Positions 6,629-51,786 of a stretch of DNA of 64,000 nucleotides are shown here, in pieces. How positions within the stretch are numbered: position 1 is the first letter of the stretch; the number at the start of each line of letters is the position of its first letter. Where the stretch lies: assembly GCF_001677475.2 (NCBI RefSeq), contig NZ_CP015229.1; one strand, written 5' to 3'. The notes below the pieces were generated by a model. The model worked only from the letters and a program-made list of their open reading frames with translations. It was not told the origin of the DNA and made no database searches. The position numbers and the translations under genes were made by a program. The stretch is from Escherichia coli. Its GTDB lineage: Bacteria; Pseudomonadota; Gammaproteobacteria; Enterobacterales; Enterobacteriaceae.

Positions 6629-7887
6629 TCAAGATTGGCGTTATCGCCGATGATTTTACCGGCGCGACGGATATCGCCAGTTTTCTGGTGGAAAACGGTC
6701 TACCAACGGTACAAATTAACGGTGTTCCCACAGGTAAAATGCCGGAAGCAATCGACGCACTAGTGATCAGCCTGAAAACGCGCTCCTGTCCGGTGGTTGA
6801 AGCCACACAGCAATCGCTGGCGGCTCTGAGCTGGTTGCAACAGCAAGGTTGCAAACAGATCTATTTCAAATACTGCTCTACTTTCGACAGTACGGCGAAA
6901 GGTAATATCGGCCCGGTTACCGATGCGTTAATGGATGCTCTCGACACGCCGTTTACGGTCTTCTCTCCGGCCCTGCCGGTCAACGGACGTACGGTTTATC
7001 AGGGGTATTTGTTCGTAATGAATCAACTGCTGGCCGAATCTGGGATGCGCCATCACCCGGTAAATCCCATGACCGACAGCTATCTTCCCCGTCTGGTTGA
7101 AGCGCAATCCACAGGGCGCTGCGGCGTCGTTTCGGCACATGTTTTCGAACAAGGTGTAGATGCCGTTCGTCAGGAGCTGGCTCGCTTACAGCAAGAGGGC
7201 TATCGCTACGTGGTACTTGATGCGCTGACCGAACACCATCTGGAAATTCAGGGAGAAGCCTTGCGCGATGCTCCACTGGTAACGGGCGGTTCTGGTCTGG
7301 CGATTGGCCTGGCCCGGCAGTGGGCGCAAGAAAACGGTAACCAGGCTCGCGAAGCAGGGCGTCCGCTCGCTGGGCGCGGCGTAGTGCTCTCCGGTTCATG
7401 CTCTCAAATGACCAACCGCCAGGTGGCACATTACCGTCAAATTGCACCAGCCCGTGAAGTTGATGTGGCACGCTGCCTCTCAACCGAAACTCTGGCCGCT
7501 TATGCACACGAACTGGCAGAGTGGGTTCTGGGCCAGGAAAGTGTACTTGCTCCACTGGTTTTTGCCACCTCCAGCACTGACGCATTGGCAGCAATTCAAC
7601 AGCAATACGGTGCACAAAAAGCCAGTCAGGCAGTAGAAACGCTGTTTTCTCAACTAGCGGCGCGGTTAGCAGCGGAAGGCGTGACACGCTTTATTGTCGC
7701 AGGCGGTGAGACCTCCGGCGTAGTCACACAGAGCCTGGGCATAAAAGGGTTTCATATTGGCCCAACCATTTCCCCCGGCGTGCCGTGGGTAAACGCACTG
7801 GATAAGCCTGTCTCACTCGCCCTTAAATCTGGCAACTTCGGTGATGAAGCCTTTTTTTCACGAGCCCAAAGAGAGTTTTTATCATGA
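6625..7887 (+). CDS. ygbK: Four-carbon acid-sugar kinase, DUF1537 family (3-oxo-tetronate kinase OtnK-like)
   Basis: 420 aa; N-terminus MIKIGVIADDFTGATD typical of DUF1537 kinases; ATGA overlap with ygbJ stop. Confidence 0.85.
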   Translation: MIKIGVIADDFTGATDIASFLVENGLPTVQINGVPTGKMPEAIDALVISLKTRSCPVVEATQQSLAALSWLQQQGCKQIYFKYCSTFDSTAKGNIGPVTDALMDALDTPFTVFSPALPVNGRTVYQGYLFVMNQLLAESGMRHHPVNPMTDSYLPRLVEAQSTGRCGVVSAHVFEQGVDAVRQELARLQQEGYRYVVLDALTEHHLEIQGEALRDAPLVTGGSGLAIGLARQWAQENGNQAREAGRPLAGRGVVLSGSCSQMTNRQVAHYRQIAPAREVDVARCLSTETLAAYAHELAEWVLGQESVLAPLVFATSSTDALAAIQQQYGAQKASQAVETLFSQLAARLAAEGVTRFIVAGGETSGVVTQSLGIKGFHIGPTISPGVPWVNALDKPVSLALKSGNFGDEAFFSRAQREFLS

Positions 7888-24816: not shown

Positions 24817-25516
24817 GGGAGTTCTACCGCAGGGGCGGGGAACTCCAAGTGATATCCATCATCGCATCCAGTGCGCCCGGTTTATCCCCGCTGGCGCGGG
24901 GAACACCAAATCCAGCCAGCCGCCGACGGTAATCACCCCGGTTTATCCCCGCTGGCGCGGGGAACACTATGGGGTAGGGCGCTATCAGACATTTACGCAC
25001 GGTTTATCCCCGCTGGCGCGGGGAACACTGCAAGTAACGTTAAGGGAACCGTGGAGACAGCGGTTTATCCCCGCTGGCGCGGGGAACACTTAGAAAACGC
25101 AATGAGCCGCGCGCCCATACCCGGTTTATCCCCGCTGGCGCGGGGAACACGGCACGCTGGACTGAACAAATCCCTGGGCCATCGGTTTATCCCCGCTGGC
25201 GCGGGGAACACACTTACAACCACAATAATAAAAAAAGCCTCGTCGGTTTATCCCCGCTGGCGCGGGGAACACGCCGCTATCTCACCACCAGAACTGTTAC
25301 CCGTCGGTTTATCCCCGCTGGCGCGGGGAACACTTGCAGTGGATAGTCATGTAGCCCGCGCGGGCCGGTTTATCCCCGCTGGCGCGGGGAACACTTTAAA
25401 TACTGCCGTTCCAGCTTGTTGATCGCCGGTTTATCCCCGCTGGCGCGGGGAACACCGTAACTGCCTGTACACGCTGTAATGGCTCACCGGTTTATCCCCG
25501 CTGGCGCGGGGAACAC
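24817..25516 (-). CRISPR. CRISPR array 1 (type I-E): 11 identical 29-nt repeats plus 1 degenerate terminal repeat, 11 spacers of 32 nt
   Basis: Repeat CGGTTTATCCCCGCTGGCGCGGGGAACAC (plus strand) recurs at 24878 + 61k for k=0..10. Degenerate distal repeat at 24817-24845 (GGGAGTTCTACCGCAGGGGCGGGGAACTC). Leader is on the cas2 side, so transcription is on the minus strand. Confidence 0.97.
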
Positions 25517-25612: not shown

Positions 25613-26822
<1,210 letters not shown>

Positions 26823-26826
<4 letters not shown>

Positions 26827-27473
26827 GCCTCTGCTCCGGGTTTGATCAGCATCAGACCACAACCGAACGCCCGGCTTTTGCCATACCCCTGACTGAGACG
26901 TTGCAGAAATAACCCAGGATCGGTGACCGTAAGCATCCCCGTATAATCCACGCTACTGAACTGGATCAGTTGCCGGGAGTTTTCCCGCCGCAGTTGCTGT
27001 TGTCGGTAGGCATCAACCGAAGTATCCAGCAGTGTAAAACCGCTTCTCTCCCCCTGCGCTGCCAGCCAGTTCAGCGCAGCCTGTTGTTGATGCAACCAGA
27101 CATCACTTCCTTCCACCGGCCCCCTCACCTGCCGTTTCGCCTCCATCAGCAAGTCGTGGCGTTTGCCCGCTTTACAAATTGTTGGATTCGCCCGCAGGTT
27201 GAAACAAAGGGATTGTCCGGTACGCAACTCTGGCGCAAATGGTCGGCATTCGATGGTGAAAATATCACTTTCCGCCGGGCGTTCCTGCGACAGGACAAAA
27301 AAGCGAAACGCCCCCTGGAGTTCTTCCCGACGATAAAGAAATTGCCTTTCTTTGCCGCCAGGAAAAAGATCCCACAGCCACTGATGCATTACATATTCAC
27401 CGCGATCCACCAAATGCAGCAACTGCGCAGGCGAAAGCTGGCCGGTATGTAATGTTATTCTTGAGAGGTACAT
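26823..27473 (-). CDS. cas6e: crRNA endoribonuclease Cas6e (CasE)
   Basis: Start at ATG 27473 (MYLSRITLH…) preceded by AAGGAGGA; 216 aa; Gly-rich C-terminal segment (GYGKSRAFGCGLM). Strongly diverged from K-12 CasE as recalled. Confidence 0.9.
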
Positions 27474-28201
27474 GGTTCCTCCTTGCTGAGCCACGGCCCC
27501 TGATTGATGGTGCGTTCCCCAAACAGCCACTGCTGACGATTTAAAGGAACATCCCGGCGACGTAATATTTTGCTCGCGACCAGGCCGTCGTGTTCCCCTT
27601 CCCACCAGCATTCATCCTGAAGTTTCGGGAGTGAGACTTTCAGTTCGCGGAAACTATCCTGATACTGTTGGTATGCGTTACGTAAGACATCAGACGCGTT
27701 GCCTTCGAGCAGTAACGGCGCAAGTGGTAACGCCAGCGGATGACTTTTTCGCCCCAGATAAAGCGGAAAAACCGGATGACGTAAACCGTCCTGCAACTGT
27801 TCAAGGCTGTAAGGCGCATCGGGGGTTGTTGCCACCGCCACCATCCACCAGGCATCGGTGTAGTAGTCGCGCCGGGAGATAATCGCGCTCAGAAGATCAG
27901 GGGCGCTCAACTCTTCGCGACGGCTGAAATAACGCGCTTTACGCACCTCTTTTGGCATCTGGACCGTGTGATAATCCCGTGCCCAGCGCGGGTTACGGCT
28001 GGCGCAAACCACCAGTGAATAGTGGCGGTTAAACGCGTTTAATCGTTCGGTATCATCACGCCGAATCCCTACCCCGGCAGCCAGCAGCCCCAGCAATGCT
28101 GAGCGCGAAGGCAGTTCATGGGTATGACGCACTTCGCCGGGGGCATCGACGCCCCAGGATGCCATTGGCCCATGAAGCTGAAAAATCAAATATTGGCTCA
28201 T
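27455..28201 (-). CDS. cas5: Cascade subunit Cas5e (CasD)
   Basis: 248 aa; N-terminus MSQYLIFQLHGPMASWG parallels K-12 CasD (MRSYLILRLAGPMQAWG); 19-nt overlap with cas6e start. Confidence 0.9.
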   Translation of the reverse strand: MSQYLIFQLHGPMASWGVDAPGEVRHTHELPSRSALLGLLAAGVGIRRDDTERLNAFNRHYSLVVCASRNPRWARDYHTVQMPKEVRKARYFSRREELSAPDLLSAIISRRDYYTDAWWMVAVATTPDAPYSLEQLQDGLRHPVFPLYLGRKSHPLALPLAPLLLEGNASDVLRNAYQQYQDSFRELKVSLPKLQDECWWEGEHDGLVASKILRRRDVPLNRQQWLFGERTINQGPWLSKEEPCTSQE

Positions 28202-28211
28202 TAGCCGCCCC

Positions 28212-29267
28212 TTACGCGCAGATAAAGTCCAGCACGTCCTTCATGCTTCCCTGTTTGTTCATCACGTCAAAGCTTGCGCATTCGGTCTTCTGTTCATAGA
28301 CCGTATTCATATTTTCGCGAAGCGTTGTAATACGCTGCACCGCCACATCTAACTGCCGGGTGCCATTAATGGGTTCATAGAAAGCCGCCGCCAGAGAGCG
28401 TGGTTGTTCAGTGCCTTTTTCTGCCAGCGCCCAGGAGGCGTAGGCACGGCTGGCAAAGCTGTTCTGTTTGCCGGTTGGGGAGACTTTAAGTGCGGCTTCC
28501 GTAAAGGCGCGCAAGGTCTGATTAGCTAACGCTTCGTCACCGCCGAGGTTTTCGACCAGCAGATCTTTATCGATGCAGATATAGGTGTAGAACAGCGCAG
28601 AACCGAATCCGGTTTCACCAAGATGCCCGGCACCGGCATCTTCAGAAGCCTGGCGCAAATCATCAACGGCGGTGAAAAAATCATCTTCGACAATCGTTTC
28701 ACTGACACCAAATGCATGCGCGACCTGGCAGGCGGCTTCAACATTAAATTCGGGTTTATTCGCCAGCATACGACCAAACATAGCGATATCTACTGCCATG
28801 CGATCTTTACGTAACAAAGCGAGATCTTCCTCTTTTGGCGCGCGCTTTTCTTCGGCCAGTTGATGGGCCAGCGCTTTTACGGCGTCAAATTCTGCCGGGC
28901 TGATATGGACTAGCTGTTCAGTTTCGGCGTTAGTGAGCGGATCTTTTGGTTTTTTGTCGTTTTTAGCTTTCCCAAGATAATCCGCAATTTTCGCCGCCCA
29001 TTCGATGGCTTTTTTCTCTTCGATGCCTTTCTCAATCAGGATAGTTGCCGCCTCACGCGCAATACGCCCACTGCGAATACCAATATGGCCCGCCAGCGCC
29101 TGTTCAAAAAGTGCAGAAGTGCGCCACGCACGTTTCAGACTTTGTGAGGAAACGCGCAGACGCGTTGCTCCACCCAGTACCACAGTTTTTGGCGCACCGG
29201 TGTCATCACGGTTAAGGTTGGCAGCAGGGTAAGCGGTTAACAAATGAAGCTGAATAAATGTCGTCAT
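28212..29267 (-). CDS. cas7: Cascade backbone subunit Cas7e (CasC)
   Basis: 351 aa; N-terminal …LNRDDTGAPKTVVLGGATRLRVSSQSLKRAWR… typical of Cas7e. Confidence 0.9.
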   Translation of the reverse strand: MTTFIQLHLLTAYPAANLNRDDTGAPKTVVLGGATRLRVSSQSLKRAWRTSALFEQALAGHIGIRSGRIAREAATILIEKGIEEKKAIEWAAKIADYLGKAKNDKKPKDPLTNAETEQLVHISPAEFDAVKALAHQLAEEKRAPKEEDLALLRKDRMAVDIAMFGRMLANKPEFNVEAACQVAHAFGVSETIVEDDFFTAVDDLRQASEDAGAGHLGETGFGSALFYTYICIDKDLLVENLGGDEALANQTLRAFTEAALKVSPTGKQNSFASRAYASWALAEKGTEQPRSLAAAFYEPINGTRQLDVAVQRITTLRENMNTVYEQKTECASFDVMNKQGSMKDVLDFICA

Positions 29268-29281
29268 GAGATAGTCCTTTA

Positions 29282-29818
29282 TTAATTTTGTTCGTTATCG
29301 GCGTCGCCAGCCTGGTAATATTCCAGCGCCCAGCGGATACGGATAAATTCTGTTGGCCGCTGCTGGCGGCGGTGATGATTGAGCAGATCGTCGCTCTCCT
29401 GGCACCAGCGGAAAATATCGTCTGCCAAAGAGATAAGATTGACGGAACCATTTAATAATTTGACCGCGCGACGTAACTGGCGCAGTAATTCATCCGGCGT
29501 TTTGACTGCCGACAGGCGAGTAAAACGCCCCTCAGACATTACCGCCGCCAACTGCGCGGCAAAAGGCTGCCGTTCATCAATGGCTTTTACATTGGCGGCA
29601 ACGGCGGCAACCAGCGCCAGTGCGGTAAAACGCCACTCCTGTGATTCAATTTTCCACAACGTGTGGGTCTGCATCAGCAGTGAACGAAACCCTTCTGACA
29701 GACAAACATCATTAACCGTTGTGCTACGCCGCAGACTGGCACGATTGCCGCGTTTTTCCTGCAACTCTTCGTGCCATTTACGCAGCGTGGCTTTGTGCTC
29801 CTCTTTTACAATACTCAT
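29282..29818 (-). CDS. cse2: Cascade small subunit Cse2 (CasB)
   Basis: 178 aa, basic helical protein between cse1 and cas7; ATGA overlap with cse1 stop. Confidence 0.85.
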   Translation of the reverse strand: MSIVKEEHKATLRKWHEELQEKRGNRASLRRSTTVNDVCLSEGFRSLLMQTHTLWKIESQEWRFTALALVAAVAANVKAIDERQPFAAQLAAVMSEGRFTRLSAVKTPDELLRQLRRAVKLLNGSVNLISLADDIFRWCQESDDLLNHHRRQQRPTEFIRIRWALEYYQAGDADNEQN

Positions 29819-31377
29819 TCAGCAGCCTCCTGCTTTTTCTCCCTGGCGGCTTTAGCACTTTGCTTCTCCGCCGATGTTGTAAAATATTTCTTGCGCGCGG
29901 TCATGACGCGTTTCAAATCAACGGGCTCATAAGGATTAGTGAATACACGCTCGTCAAAATCCTGACGCGCGAATAACCAAATTTCCTTTTGCCATTTGCC
30001 GAGTAATTCATCCGCATCCTGACCTTCTTCAATTTGGCGCACTAACCTCAGGAAGCGATGCTGAGTTTTGTTCCAGAAGTCGATATCCACAAAACTGAAA
30101 TCACCCCTTGCACCTTTTGGATCGGAGAACCATGCTTCTTTCAATGCACTCCGTAACAGACTCAGAATCCGTGAAGCCGTTTGCGCAGCCAGCCGCAGCT
30201 TCGGTATCTGGCCTTCTTTTTTATTGAGCAGTAGCGGGAAATGGTGTTCGTACCAACAGCGCGCTTTCATGTTGTCAAAATCATAACCAAATCCCCACAG
30301 GCCCACTTTTGCCTGTTTCAGACTGCTGGCATTAAAGAGTTTCACCACCAGCGCGGGAAGTTCCGTATTGTTTTCTGATTTACCCGTTTCGATAAGGCCT
30401 AACCAGTCGCGCCAGATTAAACCGCCCGGTTGTGGTTTAACGGAGTAAAACTCGCCACCCTCTTTAAGTGGTACACGGTAAGGCGTTAAGGGATGCTGCC
30501 ACATGGCATAATTGGCACCATAATTTTTGGTCGTCATCAGGCTCAGGAGCGCGTCGTTCTGCTCGTCGCAAATATCGCAGTTGCCGACTGTCGTGGTATT
30601 AAAATCAATACGTATACGCCGCGGCATTCCCCAGTACGCCTGGAGTTTATTGACCTGATCATGGGTTACCACCGCACCGGCCAGTTCGCTGGTACGCGTC
30701 GGGCCTAGCCAGGGGAAAATCAGATCGTCAAATTTTTTGGGTAGCGGTAAGTCGGCTTCATCCTGCGGCATCACGTTGAGCCACAGTTTGCGCCACAAGG
30801 GTGTTTGTTGATTGCCCTGATATTCCTGTAATTCAATGAGAGTCGTCATCGGCCCACCGCCGCGTAAACCGGTGCGATAGCCTTTGCCGCCCGCGGGTGC
30901 ATTCAACTGTAAAGAGAACAAGGCCAATGCTAAGCAATGGGGGCACAGATATTCCGTTACACCCCGCTTGATAAAATGGTCTTTATTAAACTTCGTCGTT
31001 TGAGAACCGGGAATCTCAGGCAGTAGCGAAGCGACCGGAACTTTATCTCCCGTGAGCGCCTCAAAATCCTGCATAAATGAAGGGGAATCTGGCCCAAACT
31101 GGAAAGCATGTTCTAAGGACAGCAATGCTTCCCGTAGCTTTTCAGCTTCCAGTCCGTCTTCCCAGATATCATCCCAACGACGATGATCTTTTGGCGCGAA
31201 GCTGGTTTGTAGTAGCCCCAGCAAAAACTGCCAGGCCGCCCCCTGGAGATCTGCCCGCGGCGCAGCGATATCGACAACATTTTCATCCGCCAGATCGACT
31301 GGCGCCAGTTTGCCTGTCGTTCCGTCTTTATAACGAACGGGCAACCACGGGGTTGTTATAATTGAAAAAAATTCCAT
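29815..31377 (-). CDS. cse1: Cascade large subunit Cse1 (CasA)
   Basis: Start at ATG 31377 (MEFFSIITTPWLPVRYKDG…) with GAGG SD; ORF-track start 31392 is TTG. N-terminus parallels K-12 Cse1 (…NWIPVRPRNG…). Confidence 0.88.
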   Translation of the reverse strand: MEFFSIITTPWLPVRYKDGTTGKLAPVDLADENVVDIAAPRADLQGAAWQFLLGLLQTSFAPKDHRRWDDIWEDGLEAEKLREALLSLEHAFQFGPDSPSFMQDFEALTGDKVPVASLLPEIPGSQTTKFNKDHFIKRGVTEYLCPHCLALALFSLQLNAPAGGKGYRTGLRGGGPMTTLIELQEYQGNQQTPLWRKLWLNVMPQDEADLPLPKKFDDLIFPWLGPTRTSELAGAVVTHDQVNKLQAYWGMPRRIRIDFNTTTVGNCDICDEQNDALLSLMTTKNYGANYAMWQHPLTPYRVPLKEGGEFYSVKPQPGGLIWRDWLGLIETGKSENNTELPALVVKLFNASSLKQAKVGLWGFGYDFDNMKARCWYEHHFPLLLNKKEGQIPKLRLAAQTASRILSLLRSALKEAWFSDPKGARGDFSFVDIDFWNKTQHRFLRLVRQIEEGQDADELLGKWQKEIWLFARQDFDERVFTNPYEPVDLKRVMTARKKYFTTSAEKQSAKAAREKKQEAAE

Positions 31378-31752
31378 ACGCTTTCCTCGCAAATAAGACC
31401 ATCCATGGTAGGTTGTCCATCACCATATTCAAGAATCAATCGAAAAGAGAGATTACATCATATTAAATGAATATATTGAAAATTAGATTATTATTAAATA
31501 ATCAATAAATCACACGAATATATAAAGATAATTTTCTATAATGCTTTTCGCTCAGGCTCTATCACTTAATAAAAACCAAAGTATTCTTTATCAAAAGGTT
31601 TTTCAACTCTGCTTCCGGACATTGTTACATATATCAATAACTCTTAGAGATTTTCTTTATTTCGAATAACCCTTATTTTTGATATAAACGTCTTCAGTTC
31701 CCTGTCTAAGGGATTAACCAAGTTAGTGATACACGTATATCATTTTATGCTC
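31378..31752 (-). promoter_or_regulatory. AT-rich cas3-cse1 intergenic region, presumed Cascade operon promoter
   Basis: 375-nt strongly AT-rich spacer upstream of cse1. By analogy with K-12, where this region holds the H-NS-silenced, LeuO-activated Pcas promoter; not demonstrated here. Confidence 0.45.
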
Positions 31753-31781
31753 CTGTTCCCCGCGTCAGCGGGGATAAGCCC
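31753..31781 (+). repeat. Solo CRISPR-repeat-like sequence, inverted relative to both arrays, just downstream of cas3
   Basis: Plus strand CTGTTCCCCGCGTCAGCGGGGATAAGCCC; its reverse complement matches the array repeat at 25 of 29 positions; begins 26 nt from the cas3 stop. Confidence 0.6.
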
Positions 31782-31806
31782 TGGCGTCATCCGACTCCAG
31801 GGCATC

Positions 31807-34506
31807 TCAATCAACCTTACCAATCAATCCCTCCGTAGCCGAATACCCGCAACTTTCGTCATCGGTAACTAAAATCACATTTGCCATCTCCGGATCTTGC
31901 CGCTGTTCAACGCACCACTGCCTGAACGCATCCCCTTCCAGTAAAGAAAACTCATCGCGATGTTTTTTCCACCAGCTTCGACGCACTCTGACAACGCTCA
32001 TTTCCCATGCGTGAGCACCGGTGGCATAAGGCTTCACCACACCGTCAATACAGGTAGCCAGCCACAGGGAAACAGATTCCTCAGCCAGACGTGTCGACAG
32101 CTTTTCCGGAAGGTAATCGTTGATATTGGCGGCATAGCCAGGCTTGAAGTTCAGGACAAACTTTTTAGCCATTGCACGATCGCAGTAATATTTGCCCACT
32201 TGCTCCTGCTCGCTGCGGGCAAATCCTTCCGGCATTACCACGTCCTCACCGTAGACTGATTCAATAAGAAGGCGGGCTGCGTGTGGCATTTGAATAGCGC
32301 CTTGCTCACGCAGTACACGCTGCGTCAGCCAGATTCGTCCATGATCGGGATAGACATATGCACTGTTACGCATGGCACTGCCGAACCATTCGTCACCAGG
32401 AGCGTCGTCCCAGACGGGGGCCAGAATCAGCAATTCAGGAGGGGAACGCTCGTCTTTTCCGTCACGCTTTAACTGACCATTAATATCGCGGATATGCCGC
32501 TGTAATCGCCCCGCCCGTTGGATCAGCAAATCAACAGAGGCCAGGTCGGAGATCATTTCGTCCAGGTCAATATCCACACTTTGTTCAATTACTTGCGTAC
32601 AAACAATGACTTGCGATAATCTCTGTAAACTACAACTTTTACCAAAGCGTGCCAACGTTTCCGTTTCAATTCGCTGGCGATCGCTAAAAGCAAAGCGGCT
32701 ATGAAAAAGAGAAAGGCTGGAAGCAGGAATGACGCCGCGGGCAAGTAACTGACGATAAACTTTAATAGCATCATCGACAGAATTCCGGATCCAGGCGATG
32801 CATTTCCCCTGACTTACCGCCGATTCGATACGCGCAATACACTCTTGTTCGCTATGAAGCCAACCCACGCTCACGCTACGCTCAACGTCTTTGCGCGTCG
32901 CTACCCGGTGTGAATGCACATCGGATTTCGTAACGTGCGTCAGCCAGGGGTAATCATCCTTTTCCAGGAACGGAGCTTCTTGCTGGCCCTCTGTACCACG
33001 CGCAAAGGCAGCAACGAGTTTGTCGCGCTGCTGTTGAGATAACGTGGCAGAAAGCAAAATGACGCTGTTTCCGCCACGCGCCTGCAGCTCGATCAGCCCT
33101 TCAAGAATGCATGACATGTAAGCGTCACAGGCATGGATCTCATCAGCCAGCAGGATTTTGTTACTCAGTCCCAGAAGCCGCAGATTATTATGTTTGAACG
33201 GCATCACAGCCATCATCGCCTGATCCAGCGTGCCGACGCCAATTTCAGCCAGCAACGCCTTCTTGTTACTGTCAGCAAACCAGGCCGCACATCCCTGGCT
33301 GAAAGCTTGTTCATCCGGTTCTTCTGACCCGACTAAATCACCGGACCAGAGTGATTCATTAAAGCGGTCCATTAATGTGCGGGCACTGTGTGCCAGCACC
33401 AGGCTGGGGCGGGATTGTGGCGAATAGAAAGCAAGCCAGGTTTTGACCAGCCGATCGTACATGGCATTGGCCGTTGCCATTGTTGGCAGGCCAAAAAACA
33501 AACCCTGCGCTTTCCCCGCAGCCATCAACCTGTGCGCCAGGATAAGCGCCGCTTCTGTTTTACCTGCGCCGGTTACATCCTCCAGAATAAATAACTGTGG
33601 TCCCGGCTGGCTGATATCCAGATCCAGCACCTTTTGCTGTAGCGGTGTCGGATTCTCAATAAAAGGAAACAGCGTATTAATTCCGGTGAAAGGCGCGGTT
33701 TCTGCTTTTGGAGGAAAGACGGTTAAGGCGTTTTGAGCCTGAACTAAAGTTTTCTGCCAGTAATCTTCAATATCCATTGTCTGTGCGACGCGTGGAAAAA
33801 ATCGCGTTGACGATCCCGTCCAGTCTGCAAGTACGACGGTTGCAGAGATATACCAGGAAAGTTGTTTTATAAGTTCAACGCCCTCGTCATCATCCCAGAA
33901 TGTGGGGATCTCTATGAGCGGAAACAGTGCCTTGATTGCAAGGAGAAAATCTCGTGCGGCAGCTTTGTCTTCAGGCAGAAAGTTGTCCAGTTCATCCATA
34001 CGGTCAGGAGGCCGACCATGATGCCCGGTAGTTATGGGCATCCACATATCTATTACCCGTTTGAGCTTGCGCGGAGAGAGTGAAGATGCAGGAAGCAATT
34101 CTTCGCATTCACTTAAATAATGGTGCCACAACCAGTAACCCAGCGTTGAATGAGAGATTTTTTCGTAATTTTTTCTAGAGCTTTCCGGAACCTTGAGTTG
34201 CGGGTGCAGGTAAAGTTGCTGAAAAGAGCGGGCAAATTTTCCAGTATCGTGCCAGCACAATAGCCAGGCGAAAAATTGTGCTGCCTGCTCCGTATCAGCG
34301 AAACCTAGTTGACGAAAATAGTCAGCCAGCCCGAAGCAATTGCTTTTAACCATTAAATAGCCCATCGCGGCTACATCCAGCGAATGCCAGCAAAGAAGGT
34401 GATAGTCGTCGCCCCCGTCTTTCTCGCCGCGTCGGGTTTTTCCCCAGAAATCAAAAAAAGTCACAATATTTTTATCCTTCAGTAAACTTAAAGGATATTT
34501 ACGCAT
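31807..34506 (-). CDS. cas3: Cas3 HD-nuclease/helicase (type I-E)
   Basis: 899 aa; N-terminal HD domain (…LLCWHSLDVAA…), helicase motif I (TGAGKTEAA) and motif II (LLADEIHACD). Confidence 0.93.
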   Translation of the reverse strand: MRKYPLSLLKDKNIVTFFDFWGKTRRGEKDGGDDYHLLCWHSLDVAAMGYLMVKSNCFGLADYFRQLGFADTEQAAQFFAWLLCWHDTGKFARSFQQLYLHPQLKVPESSRKNYEKISHSTLGYWLWHHYLSECEELLPASSLSPRKLKRVIDMWMPITTGHHGRPPDRMDELDNFLPEDKAAARDFLLAIKALFPLIEIPTFWDDDEGVELIKQLSWYISATVVLADWTGSSTRFFPRVAQTMDIEDYWQKTLVQAQNALTVFPPKAETAPFTGINTLFPFIENPTPLQQKVLDLDISQPGPQLFILEDVTGAGKTEAALILAHRLMAAGKAQGLFFGLPTMATANAMYDRLVKTWLAFYSPQSRPSLVLAHSARTLMDRFNESLWSGDLVGSEEPDEQAFSQGCAAWFADSNKKALLAEIGVGTLDQAMMAVMPFKHNNLRLLGLSNKILLADEIHACDAYMSCILEGLIELQARGGNSVILLSATLSQQQRDKLVAAFARGTEGQQEAPFLEKDDYPWLTHVTKSDVHSHRVATRKDVERSVSVGWLHSEQECIARIESAVSQGKCIAWIRNSVDDAIKVYRQLLARGVIPASSLSLFHSRFAFSDRQRIETETLARFGKSCSLQRLSQVIVCTQVIEQSVDIDLDEMISDLASVDLLIQRAGRLQRHIRDINGQLKRDGKDERSPPELLILAPVWDDAPGDEWFGSAMRNSAYVYPDHGRIWLTQRVLREQGAIQMPHAARLLIESVYGEDVVMPEGFARSEQEQVGKYYCDRAMAKKFVLNFKPGYAANINDYLPEKLSTRLAEESVSLWLATCIDGVVKPYATGAHAWEMSVVRVRRSWWKKHRDEFSLLEGDAFRQWCVEQRQDPEMANVILVTDDESCGYSATEGLIGKVD

Positions 34507-34827: not shown

Positions 34828-35059
34828 GCCACAAGGGCATATTTTGTCAGCATGTCTTGCCTCCCTGCAAAGAAGAGACTAACATTCGAATTGTTTGGGT
34901 TCGAACGTAAGCCTCAGGTTGATAGAAATATCGCCTGGGGCTTTTGTCCATCTGGAACCTCGCGAATGCTTAACGCCAGACAGCCTCAAGCACCCGACGC
35001 CATTCTATACCTGATAATTCTTCCAGCGGCGTTCACGTTTAAAATCAGGAATGCTGCTC

Positions 35060-50964: not shown

Positions 50965-51786
50965 ATGGTTATCCCCGCTAACGCGGGGAACTCACTGAAA
51001 ACACCGGCGAGATCGTATTTTTTGCCGGTTTATCCCCGCTCGCGCGGGGAACTCTACCGGAAGGCAGGCACATTAGATCAGGTGATCGGTTTATCCCCGC
51101 TCGCGCGGGGAACTCCAGTGAGCGGAAGAAGAATGACTAACAGAGAGCGGTTTATCCCCGCTCGCGCGGGGAACTCCCCAGCCACAACAGCCACGCGTCG
51201 CGCTGTTCCGGTTTATCCCCGCTCGCGCGGGGAACTCGGAAACCGCCCCGGCGGTGGTTGGCTGTTTGCCGGTTTATCCCCGCTCGCGCGGGGAACTCTT
51301 TGCGCCGGAAATAGGAATCGTATTCGGTCTCGGTTTATCCCCGCTCGCGCGGGGAACTCTTATGCATCTCATCAAGCTTGTCGCCAAACGACGGTTTATC
51401 CCCGCTCGCGCGGGGAACTCTTAAATCGCGCTGGAAAAAAATGGTTTTTGCGCGGTTTATCCCCGCTCGCGCGGGGAACTCACACCCCGTTGCAATAAAT
51501 GGTCTGGGGGCTGCGGTTTATCCCCGCTCGCGCGGGGAACTCCAAACGCTTCTTCGTAGGCAGCACTGTAGGCCCGGTTTATCCCCGCTCGCGCGGGGAA
51601 CTCGGTGAAAAGATGAGTGCATACTGGTTTGTTTTCGGTTTATCCCCGCTCGCGCGGGGAACTCTCTTTTCCCGCTAATCACGACCAGATCCTGTCCGGT
51701 TTATCCCCGCTCGCGCGGGGAACTCGTAAAACCTCCTCGCGCCCACAATCGCAGCGGCGGTTTATCCCCGCTCGCGCGGGGAACTC
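50965..51786 (-). CRISPR. CRISPR array 2 (type I-E): 13 identical 29-nt repeats plus 1 degenerate terminal repeat, 13 spacers of 32 nt
   Basis: Repeat CGGTTTATCCCCGCTCGCGCGGGGAACTC recurs at 51026 + 61k for k=0..12. Degenerate distal repeat (GGTTATCCCCGCTAACGCGGGGAACTC) at 50966-50993. Leader on the queE side. Confidence 0.97.

Follow-up and report, generated by a model that had tools for sequence, protein, structure and literature searches.

The type I-E locus and the repeat beside cas3

The window, by which we mean the whole 64-kb stretch of Escherichia coli DNA analyzed here, carries a complete type I-E CRISPR-Cas locus on its minus strand. Eight Cas proteins passed curated NCBIfam cutoffs, seven with I-E-specific models and Cas3 with the Cas3 core and HD models. 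The main features of the locus are as follows.

24817-25516: array 1, with the crRNA-sense repeat GTGTTCCCCGCGCCAGCGGGGATAAACCG
26823-31377, minus strand: casA-casB-cas7-cas5-cas6e, encoding the Cascade effector and the Cas6e RNase, all above the NCBIfam type I-E equivalog cutoffs
29815-31377, minus strand: casA open reading frame (ORF)
31753-31781, plus strand: PsiR2, the flagged repeat, CTGTTCCCCGCGTCAGCGGGGATAAGCCC, with the same fold as the array repeat
31807-34506, minus strand: cas3 ORF, with NCBIfam Cas3 core and HD domains above cutoff, convergent with the mini-array described below
50965-51786: array 2, with the repeat GAGTTCCCCGCGCGAGCGGGGATAAACCG

The genes casB, cas7, cas5, cas6e, cas1, and cas2 follow casA down to position 25613. 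Both arrays have a 29-nt repeat and a 61-bp periodicity. The array 2 repeats all have a GCGA loop and start with GAG (GCCA and GTG in array 1), and in both arrays the terminal repeat has degenerated (24817-24845 and 50965-50993). The neighboring genes cysJ, queD, and ygcN are 95-99% identical to those of 5423 of the 5425 matching complete E. coli genomes, with about 98.2% identity in the best matches listed. Just upstream of cas3, positions 34838-34995 on the minus strand match the Rfam sok antitoxin RNA (RF01794; 113 bits, E = 6.5e-25), which points to a type I toxin-antitoxin locus of the hok/sok kind in the stretch from cas3 to the cysH side. This sok RNA was the only Rfam match at the gathering threshold, which returned nothing at the repeat.

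An earlier note on this DNA had flagged 31753-31781 as a solitary CRISPR repeat. The reverse complement of the segment is GGGCTTATCCCCGCTGACGCGGGGAACAG, as that note stated, and the plus strand of PsiR2 is identical to the array 1 repeat at 25 of 29 positions, the same count that had been claimed, and to the array 2 repeat, also compared on the plus strand, at 23 of 29. The palindromic core it described is present as an intact 7-bp stem. A loop change from GCCA to GUCA is one of the four differences from the array 1 repeat, and the fold has a predicted energy of -16.7 kcal/mol (z = -4.6). Scanning the window with the 27-nt repeat core and allowing up to 3 mismatches found PsiR2 as the sole match beyond the 24 array repeats, with 0 expected by chance, and confirmed that it is inverted relative to both arrays. 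PsiR2 does adjoin the 3' end of cas3, but the gap to the stop codon (31807-31809) is 25 nt, not 26. The claim that no spacer or repeat lies next to it is contradicted by a degenerate repeat at 31692-31720, which ends exactly 32 nt before PsiR2. At the sequence level the earlier description holds. PsiR2 is a real repeat, but not a solitary one, as it belongs to a two-repeat mini-CRISPR and is the half that is better preserved.

The mini-array and its predicted target

The segment 31692-31781 on the plus strand is a degenerate mini-CRISPR, PsiR1-PsiS-PsiR2, encoded on the strand opposite to cas3 and convergent with it. Its other parts, and the features predicted around it, are given here.

31578-31606, minus strand: candidate casA-operon promoter, TTGAAA-17-TACTTT, read from the sequence
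31611-31645, minus strand: predicted CreR target, with the PAM AAG at 31645-31643 and the protospacer AGTTATTGATATATGTAACAATG... at 31642-31611
31680-31688, plus strand: putative creR promoter, an extended -10 element (TGaTATAAA) read from the sequence, with its predicted start at about the 5' edge of PsiR1
31692-31720, plus strand: PsiR1, degenerate repeat, CTTCAGTTCCCTGTCTAAGGGATTAACCA, a 5-bp hairpin and then the 8-nt 5' handle ATTAACCA
31721-31752, plus strand: PsiS, 32-nt spacer-like segment between the PsiR1 handle and PsiR2, AGTTAGTGATACACGTATATCATTTTATGCTC
31778-31803, unstranded: conserved hairpin between PsiR2 and the cas3 stop codon, GCCCTGGCGTC-ATCC-GACTCCAGGGC

PsiR1 is identical to the array repeat at merely 12 of 29 positions without gaps and is for that reason easily missed by eye. 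Its stem, UCCCU/AGGGA, precedes the handle AUUAACCA, which resembles the 8-nt crRNA 5' handle AUAAACCG. Because this stem is short (5 bp, z = -1.3), Cas6e cleavage at PsiR1 is uncertain. The degenerate motif DGGGWYNRACCR occurs in three copies outside the arrays in the window (1.04 expected), and the PsiR1 copy alone is in exact register with PsiR2; the length of PsiS, 32 nt, is that of a type I-E spacer. The handle also recurs in relatives. An [AGT]GGG-plus-handle motif stands at the equivalent position in all eight listed variants, E. coli K-12 included, and a ninth sequence, from strain BEC1, has AGGGATTAACCA there, so that the handle pattern [AT][TC]N[AG]ACC[AG] follows GGG in 9 of the 9 sequences examined. 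The parts that a crRNA retains are the conserved ones, namely the 5' handle in PsiR1 and the hairpin of PsiR2, which is invariant or compensated. Since a hairpin, a handle, and a 32-nt register adjoin PsiR2, the feature is a mini-array unit and not a solitary repeat.

The best match to PsiS in the 64-kb window lies 79 bp upstream, within the cas3-casA intergenic region (IGR), and reads AAG followed by AGTTATTGATATATGTAAC.... Cascade flips out every sixth base of the guide/target pairing, and our whole-window scan with PsiS tolerated mismatches at every sixth position. PsiS and this target pair at positions 1-5, 7-11, 13, and 15-17 (14 of 17), with no pairing beyond 17; the mismatches fall at 6, 12, and 14, and the first two of these are flip-out positions. 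Shuffled PsiS sequences equaled the real match next to a functional PAM in 0 of 20,000 trials. When 794 native 32-mers of the IGR were used as mock spacers, the true PsiS register alone reached this match, the next best scoring 8. The partial pairing suggests that the site would be bound and not cleaved. Contiguous pairing also ends by position 19 in six of the seven variants with a detectable target; beyond that position, pairing resumes at 20-22 in the metagenome contig L022 and extends up to position 21 in BEC1. The window has a private T on the minus strand at 31629, protospacer position 14, where strains GF43 and N3 and the metagenome contig L023 have C. Because this change breaks a pairing of 15/15, autorepression in the window strain may be weaker.

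The cas3-casA IGR is 429 bp long, and its core (31400-31699) has 26-28% GC. The casA ATG is 234-268 bp downstream of the target, and the candidate casA promoter, on the cas strand, begins 4 nt downstream of the PAM-distal end of the protospacer. This promoter is a prediction, and the sole call of a consensus promoter scan on the cas strand is elsewhere (TTAATA-16-TATATT at 31497-31470, about 115 bp further downstream); a GAGTTGA at the candidate is invariant in a four-strain alignment. The same scan did not call the putative creR -10 element, and its promoter and terminator counts were at shuffle level. In the window, ECNB21, TUM14771, Klebsiella spallanzanii, and L022, PsiR1 opens with a repeat-like GTTC/TTCC that is preceded, at a distance of 6-8 nt, by a TGnTAnnnn motif. 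This extended -10-like motif would be a creR promoter that starts transcription at the PsiR1 edge.

Between PsiR2 and cas3, the hairpin at 31778-31803 is kept by compensatory changes in the E. coli and Klebsiella variants: across six distinct sequences, 4 of 11 pairs have changed on both sides, and 92% of the cells are paired. Its role may be to terminate or insulate the creR and cas3 transcripts, which converge here. The window's copy has a private C-U mismatch (31785/31796).

Covariation and distribution among relatives

We compared six PsiS/target designs (four E. coli types, one from Klebsiella, and one from a metagenome contig) together with that of K-12, and each has its own PsiS and a matching PAM-flanked site. 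The PsiS segments are 26, 27, 32, or 33 nt long. Those of the ECNB21 and BEC1 types are 26 nt (L001 1525-1550 and L145 777-802), 6 nt shorter than the window's 32, a difference that equals one Cas7 step in the Cascade backbone; PsiS is 27 nt in L022 and 33 nt in TUM14771. In seven of the eight listed variants, including K-12, an AAG or ATG adjoins the best match that PsiS has in its own IGR. The first 18 positions include 15 that are competent to pair, and 13-15 of these do so in the seven variants, with 15/15 in GF43, N3, and L023. The exception, the metagenome contig L024, is without a detectable target. The target is on the strand opposite to PsiS in the window, ECNB21, and L022 and on the same strand in TUM14771, K. 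spallanzanii, and K-12. In L022, two tandem ATG-flanked partial targets, 28 bp apart, take the place of one (7070-7127).

Mismatches in these designs recur every six nucleotides. Across the six designs used for this test (GF43 type, ECNB21, TUM14771, K. spallanzanii, L022, and K-12), 84 of 90 pairing positions matched versus 3 of 18 at positions 6, 12, and 18 (Fisher p = 4e-11). The score by which targets were chosen ignored positions 6, 12, and 18, which inflates the matches at pairing positions but cannot create a deficit at the ignored ones. This 6-nt periodicity points to pairing within Cascade and not to duplication, which would give equal identity at all positions.

Two closely related carriers supply paired substitutions. 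Between ECNB21 and BEC1, PsiS position 15 changes from A to T, and the target 75 bp away also changes from A to T; in the PsiR2 stem, a C:G pair has become U:A. The hairpin that the earlier note took to be recognizable by Cas6e is therefore intact in the window and kept in BEC1 by a compensatory change, but its assignment to the cas3 3' region needs revision, because it would be the 3' repeat of a crRNA-like gene opposite cas3 and would be antisense in the cas3 mRNA. The 27-nt core of PsiR2 is identical across the E. coli variants compared and Klebsiella.

PsiR2 and the adjacent hairpin occur as a module in 16 of 5426 complete E. coli genomes, and in 16 of 16 carriers the module is chromosomal and lies between cas3 and casA. 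These carriers are of four types, window-like (GF43 and N3), ECNB21-like, BEC1-like, and TUM14771-like. The 5' flank in casA and the 3' flank in cas3 are 91-98% identical across all types and the strains with a short IGR, while the IGR bodies of the window-like, ECNB21-like, and TUM14771-like types are mutually unalignable, and homology between the E. coli variants stops at or beside the repeats. The same cas3 3' end is shared by 2445 genomes that have a 97-bp IGR and no mini-array. Absence from strains with the same cas variant had been named in the earlier note as grounds for refuting the element, and formally such absence is what we found, with 16 carriers against these 2445 genomes. We attribute this sparse occurrence not to chance but to a functional cassette that is polymorphic for presence or absence.

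Three of the genomes with a 97-bp IGR (L004, L005, and L006) have casA and cas3 flanks 91-94% identical to window positions 31378-31806, and their homology to the window starts again at CAGG-ATCTCAATC, a point within the 3' arm of the 31778-31803 hairpin. The cas3 gene is annotated as frameshifted in one mini-array carrier (TUM14771, L002) and in one of the short-IGR genomes (2014C-3338, L006), and as a consequence some carriers may have an interference-dead system.

A Cas3 search with one genome per species gave 13 loci, with a mini-array in K. spallanzanii alone. The IGR is short in Escherichia albertii, Citrobacter, Salmonella enterica diarizonae, Klebsiella grimontii, and others, and in most species cas3 and casA range from overlapping or about 10 nt apart up to about 180 nt. 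In Klebsiella indica (L011), part of the L024-like PsiS sequence (GATCACGAAAGCC) is present without any repeat. A metagenome search with a PsiR2 pattern returned three contigs only, L022 with a further design, L023 with a window-type copy, and L024 with a Klebsiella-like copy. The Klebsiella-like mini-array of L024 (2686-2775) has a good PsiR2 and handle (AGGGACGAACCG), and no PAM-flanked seed match was found in this 3.9-kb contig. A contig binned as a Collinsella sp. metagenome-assembled genome (L016) encodes a Cas3 97% identical to the window's, followed by a 522-amino-acid ORF at the casA position, and probably comes from Escherichia, having been mis-binned into an actinobacterial genome.

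A proposed creR-type gene, its rivals, and known systems

We consider it likely that PsiR1-PsiS-PsiR2 is a creR-type gene for a crRNA-like RNA that guides Cascade to repress its own casA operon. The anatomy, the PAM, the partial match, and the covariation in relatives are observed, and from these we infer transcription, processing, binding, and repression. A promoter of its own would drive the proposed creR in the direction of the cas3 3' end, and Cas6e would cut both hairpins to give a product of about 61 nt, in which the handle AUUAACCA is followed by the 32-nt PsiS and then by the hairpin of PsiR2; PsiR2 would supply both the Cas6e hairpin and the 3' handle of this RNA. Cascade loaded with it would bind the AAG-flanked site at 31611-31645 in the AT-rich IGR, and with about 17 nt paired the R-loop would remain incomplete and Cas3 would not be licensed. 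Bound there, Cascade would be a roadblock to the casA operon or repress it, and might do the same to creR, since the target lies between the two candidate promoters and both could be affected. The outcome would be negative feedback on Cascade levels, relieved when abundant crRNAs titrate Cascade or an anti-CRISPR inhibits it. The assignment of repression to the casA operon is weakened by the distance of the target from casA, 234-268 bp versus about 140 bp in Salmonella.

The alternative that survives best, although we consider it unlikely, is that the mini-array supplies the antitoxin of a CreTA-type addiction module, in which Cascade represses a small toxin gene in the AT-rich IGR and loss of Cascade kills. 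The architecture is indistinguishable from that of creA, and about 230 bp of AT-rich sequence (26% GC) between the target and casA could harbor a toxin, and a small RNA toxin could go unrecognized in the sequence. However, none of the IGR ORFs of at least 20 amino acids has an obvious ribosome-binding site, and there is no conserved small ORF as a toxin candidate. Nothing toxin-like is conserved between variants, as their IGR bodies are unalignable, and the cassette is missing from most E. coli strains with the same cas genes. The type I-E element of Salmonella was judged to be standalone (Liu et al., bioRxiv 10.1101/2023.03.10.532045).

That the repeat is a decaying, nonfunctional remnant of an old array or of recombination in the cas module, as the earlier note proposed among other readings, now seems very improbable. 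The degradation of PsiR1 would fit decay, as would the absence of the element from >99% of genomes with this cas3, the breaks in homology at or beside the repeats, and the lack of a target in L024. Decay does not account for a PsiR2 core that is identical in E. coli and Klebsiella amid an unalignable IGR, for compensatory changes in the PsiR2 stem and in PsiS and its target, or for PAM-flanked seed matches in seven of eight variants with a 6-nt periodicity of mismatches. The remnant reading is strongly disfavored and is contradicted by the covariation.

We give equally little weight to the idea that the palindrome and the adjacent hairpin are mainly a cas3 3'-end structure, a terminator or mRNA stabilizer, whose likeness to the repeat is incidental. 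Two successive stable hairpins do stand close to the cas3 stop codon, at a distance of no more than about 55 nt, the second has compensatory changes, and the anti-Pcas RNA of K-12 has been suggested to interfere with cas3 termination or translation. On the other side, the scanner called 0 terminators and neither hairpin is followed by a T-run on either strand, and such a structure leaves PsiR1, the 32-nt spacing, the handle, and the PAM-flanked, covarying target unexplained. It could be a second role, compatible with that of a creR-type gene. The earlier suggestion of a decoy or ectopic integration site for Cas1-Cas2, which has the near-canonical repeat in its favor, is hardly credible, since local alignment to both array leaders stays at shuffle level, the IHF consensus WATCAANNNNTTR is absent from the IGR and present in both true leaders (Shmakov et al., PMC10120712, likewise noted the lack of an IHF site), and every variant has exactly two repeats with no sign of expansion. 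We also rejected a canonical array or acquisition-competent remnant, as no leader with an IHF site abuts the first repeat.

Between flanks that are 91-98% identical, the cassette is either absent (97-bp IGR) or present in at least four PsiS/target designs (window, ECNB21, BEC1, and TUM14771), which differ in PsiS sequence, PsiS length (32, 26, and 33 nt), and target strand, with PsiR2 and the adjacent hairpin fixed. We tentatively suggest, as a possibility that we regard as fairly unlikely, that the cas3-casA IGR is a swappable, fast-diversifying regulatory cassette, in which guide and operator may be under diversifying selection to escape phage-encoded CreR mimics (Cracr RNAs) and PsiR2 with its hairpin may serve as a recombination anchor. 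This cassette-like presence or absence, with guide/operator diversification between nearly identical flanks, is the most interesting residue of the analysis. No new mechanism is revealed. The element is a further member of a kind described in 2023, found here in a rare E. coli cas3-casA cassette. What appeared to be an orphan repeat can be annotated as a putative regulatory gene, creR, with a defined candidate operator, in a cas variant where most strains are without it. Nearly isogenic cas modules with and without the proposed RNA-guided autorepression offer a natural comparison for Cas levels, the cost of autoimmunity, and anti-CRISPR sensing. The 6-nt mismatch periodicity and the paired substitutions are a sequence-only sign of selected Cascade pairing that helps to find such elements elsewhere.

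Among known systems, phage solitary repeat units and the Racr and Cracr RNAs resemble the window element in being repeat-like sequences outside arrays that engage Cas proteins, but they are on mobile elements and act against the host, whereas the window element is chromosomal and inside the cas locus. We rejected a phage-borne solitary repeat, Racr, or Cracr because all 16 carriers have the module on the chromosome and no phage match was found in the 50,697 phage records or among the IMG/VR matches listed. Blastn of the mini-array against the phage records gave nothing, and these records held no full-length PsiS protospacer. A 14-base handle-plus-seed pattern had at least 120 chance matches in IMG/VR, none in a repeat context among the matches listed, a search that weaker mimics could escape.

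The CreTA system of Haloarcula hispanica is type I-B; as cited by Liu et al. and Shmakov et al., its CreA represses a toxin RNA gene and thereby makes the cas genes addictive. It shares with what we propose for the window element a crRNA-like RNA from a degenerate mini-CRISPR and binding, not cutting, by Cascade of a promoter between divergent genes, and it differs in its toxin RNA gene, the window being without a toxin candidate among the IGR ORFs examined.

Shmakov et al. (PMC10120712) found repeat-like sequences in 25-29% of cas3-flanking untranslated regions of I-E, I-D, and I-F1 loci and long cas3-cas8 IGRs in 20% of I-E loci. A regulatory mini-array of Pseudomonas aeruginosa I-F1 targets the cas8 promoter, and repression is Cascade dependent and Cas3 independent (Shmakov et al., PMC10120712). 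Like the window element, it lies between cas3 and cas8, with mismatches at 6 and 12 tolerated; it differs in subtype, PAM (CC), and repeat. The same study reported I-E mini-arrays between cas3 and cas8e that are transcribed opposite to cas3 and have partial targets, flanked by AAG, at the promoter of cas8e (PMC10120712). One of its examples is an E. coli locus, which is probably the K-12 cas3-casA mini-array, listed as "K12 creA" in the plasmid table of Liu et al. (bioRxiv 10.1101/2023.03.10.532045).

The K-12 mini-array has the handle AGGG-ATAAACCG, a 32-nt PsiS, and a target, AAG followed by TTATTCGTTTTATTAT, on the casA side. In K-12 (L021 6485-6556), PsiR1 is near perfect, with the palindrome TCCCTACTT/AAGTAGGGA and then ATAAACCG, and a degraded PsiR2 overlaps the cas3 stop codon. 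Position and orientation are those of the window element, as it adjoins the cas3 stop codon and converges with cas3. The state of the repeats is reversed, however, with PsiR1 well kept and PsiR2 degraded in K-12 and the opposite in the window, the cas genes are of another variant, and the target is on the same strand as PsiS and not on the opposite one. The K-12-type IGR is common (about 1130 of 5426 genomes), whereas the window module is rare (16 of 5426). The anti-Pcas promoter of K-12, whose role reviews call unknown, yields a 150-200 nt RNA in the orientation of the mini-array, and this RNA shows that the mini-array strand is transcribed in K-12.

The closest comparison is with the type I-E creR of Salmonella, which lies upstream of casA and, when combined with E. 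coli Cascade, gives about 8.6-fold repression of PcasA (Liu et al., bioRxiv 10.1101/2023.03.10.532045). That repression needs seed complementarity to an AAG-flanked site and is relieved by excess crRNA or AcrIE8 (bioRxiv 10.1101/2023.03.10.532045). Both elements are degenerate two-repeat mini-CRISPRs upstream of casA (293 bp in the reporter construct of Liu et al.), both have a PsiR1 that retains the 5' handle and a PsiR2 that retains the 3' hairpin, and in both PsiS has partial complementarity to a site upstream of casA that AAG flanks, with no obvious toxin gene. The PsiS sequences are unrelated over the first 15 nt of the Salmonella PsiS (TAGATACAGTCTTAA...), the stretch compared. The Salmonella match is 15 consecutive nucleotides about 140 bp from casA, and that of the window is 14 of 17, with gaps at 6, 12, and 14, at 234-268 bp. 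The Salmonella element was functionally tested, whereas the function of the window element is predicted from sequence. As judged on these features, the anatomy of the mini-array matches the class of CreR and regulatory mini-arrays; a handle kept in PsiR1 and a hairpin kept in PsiR2 are the conservation split of Salmonella CreR (Liu et al.).
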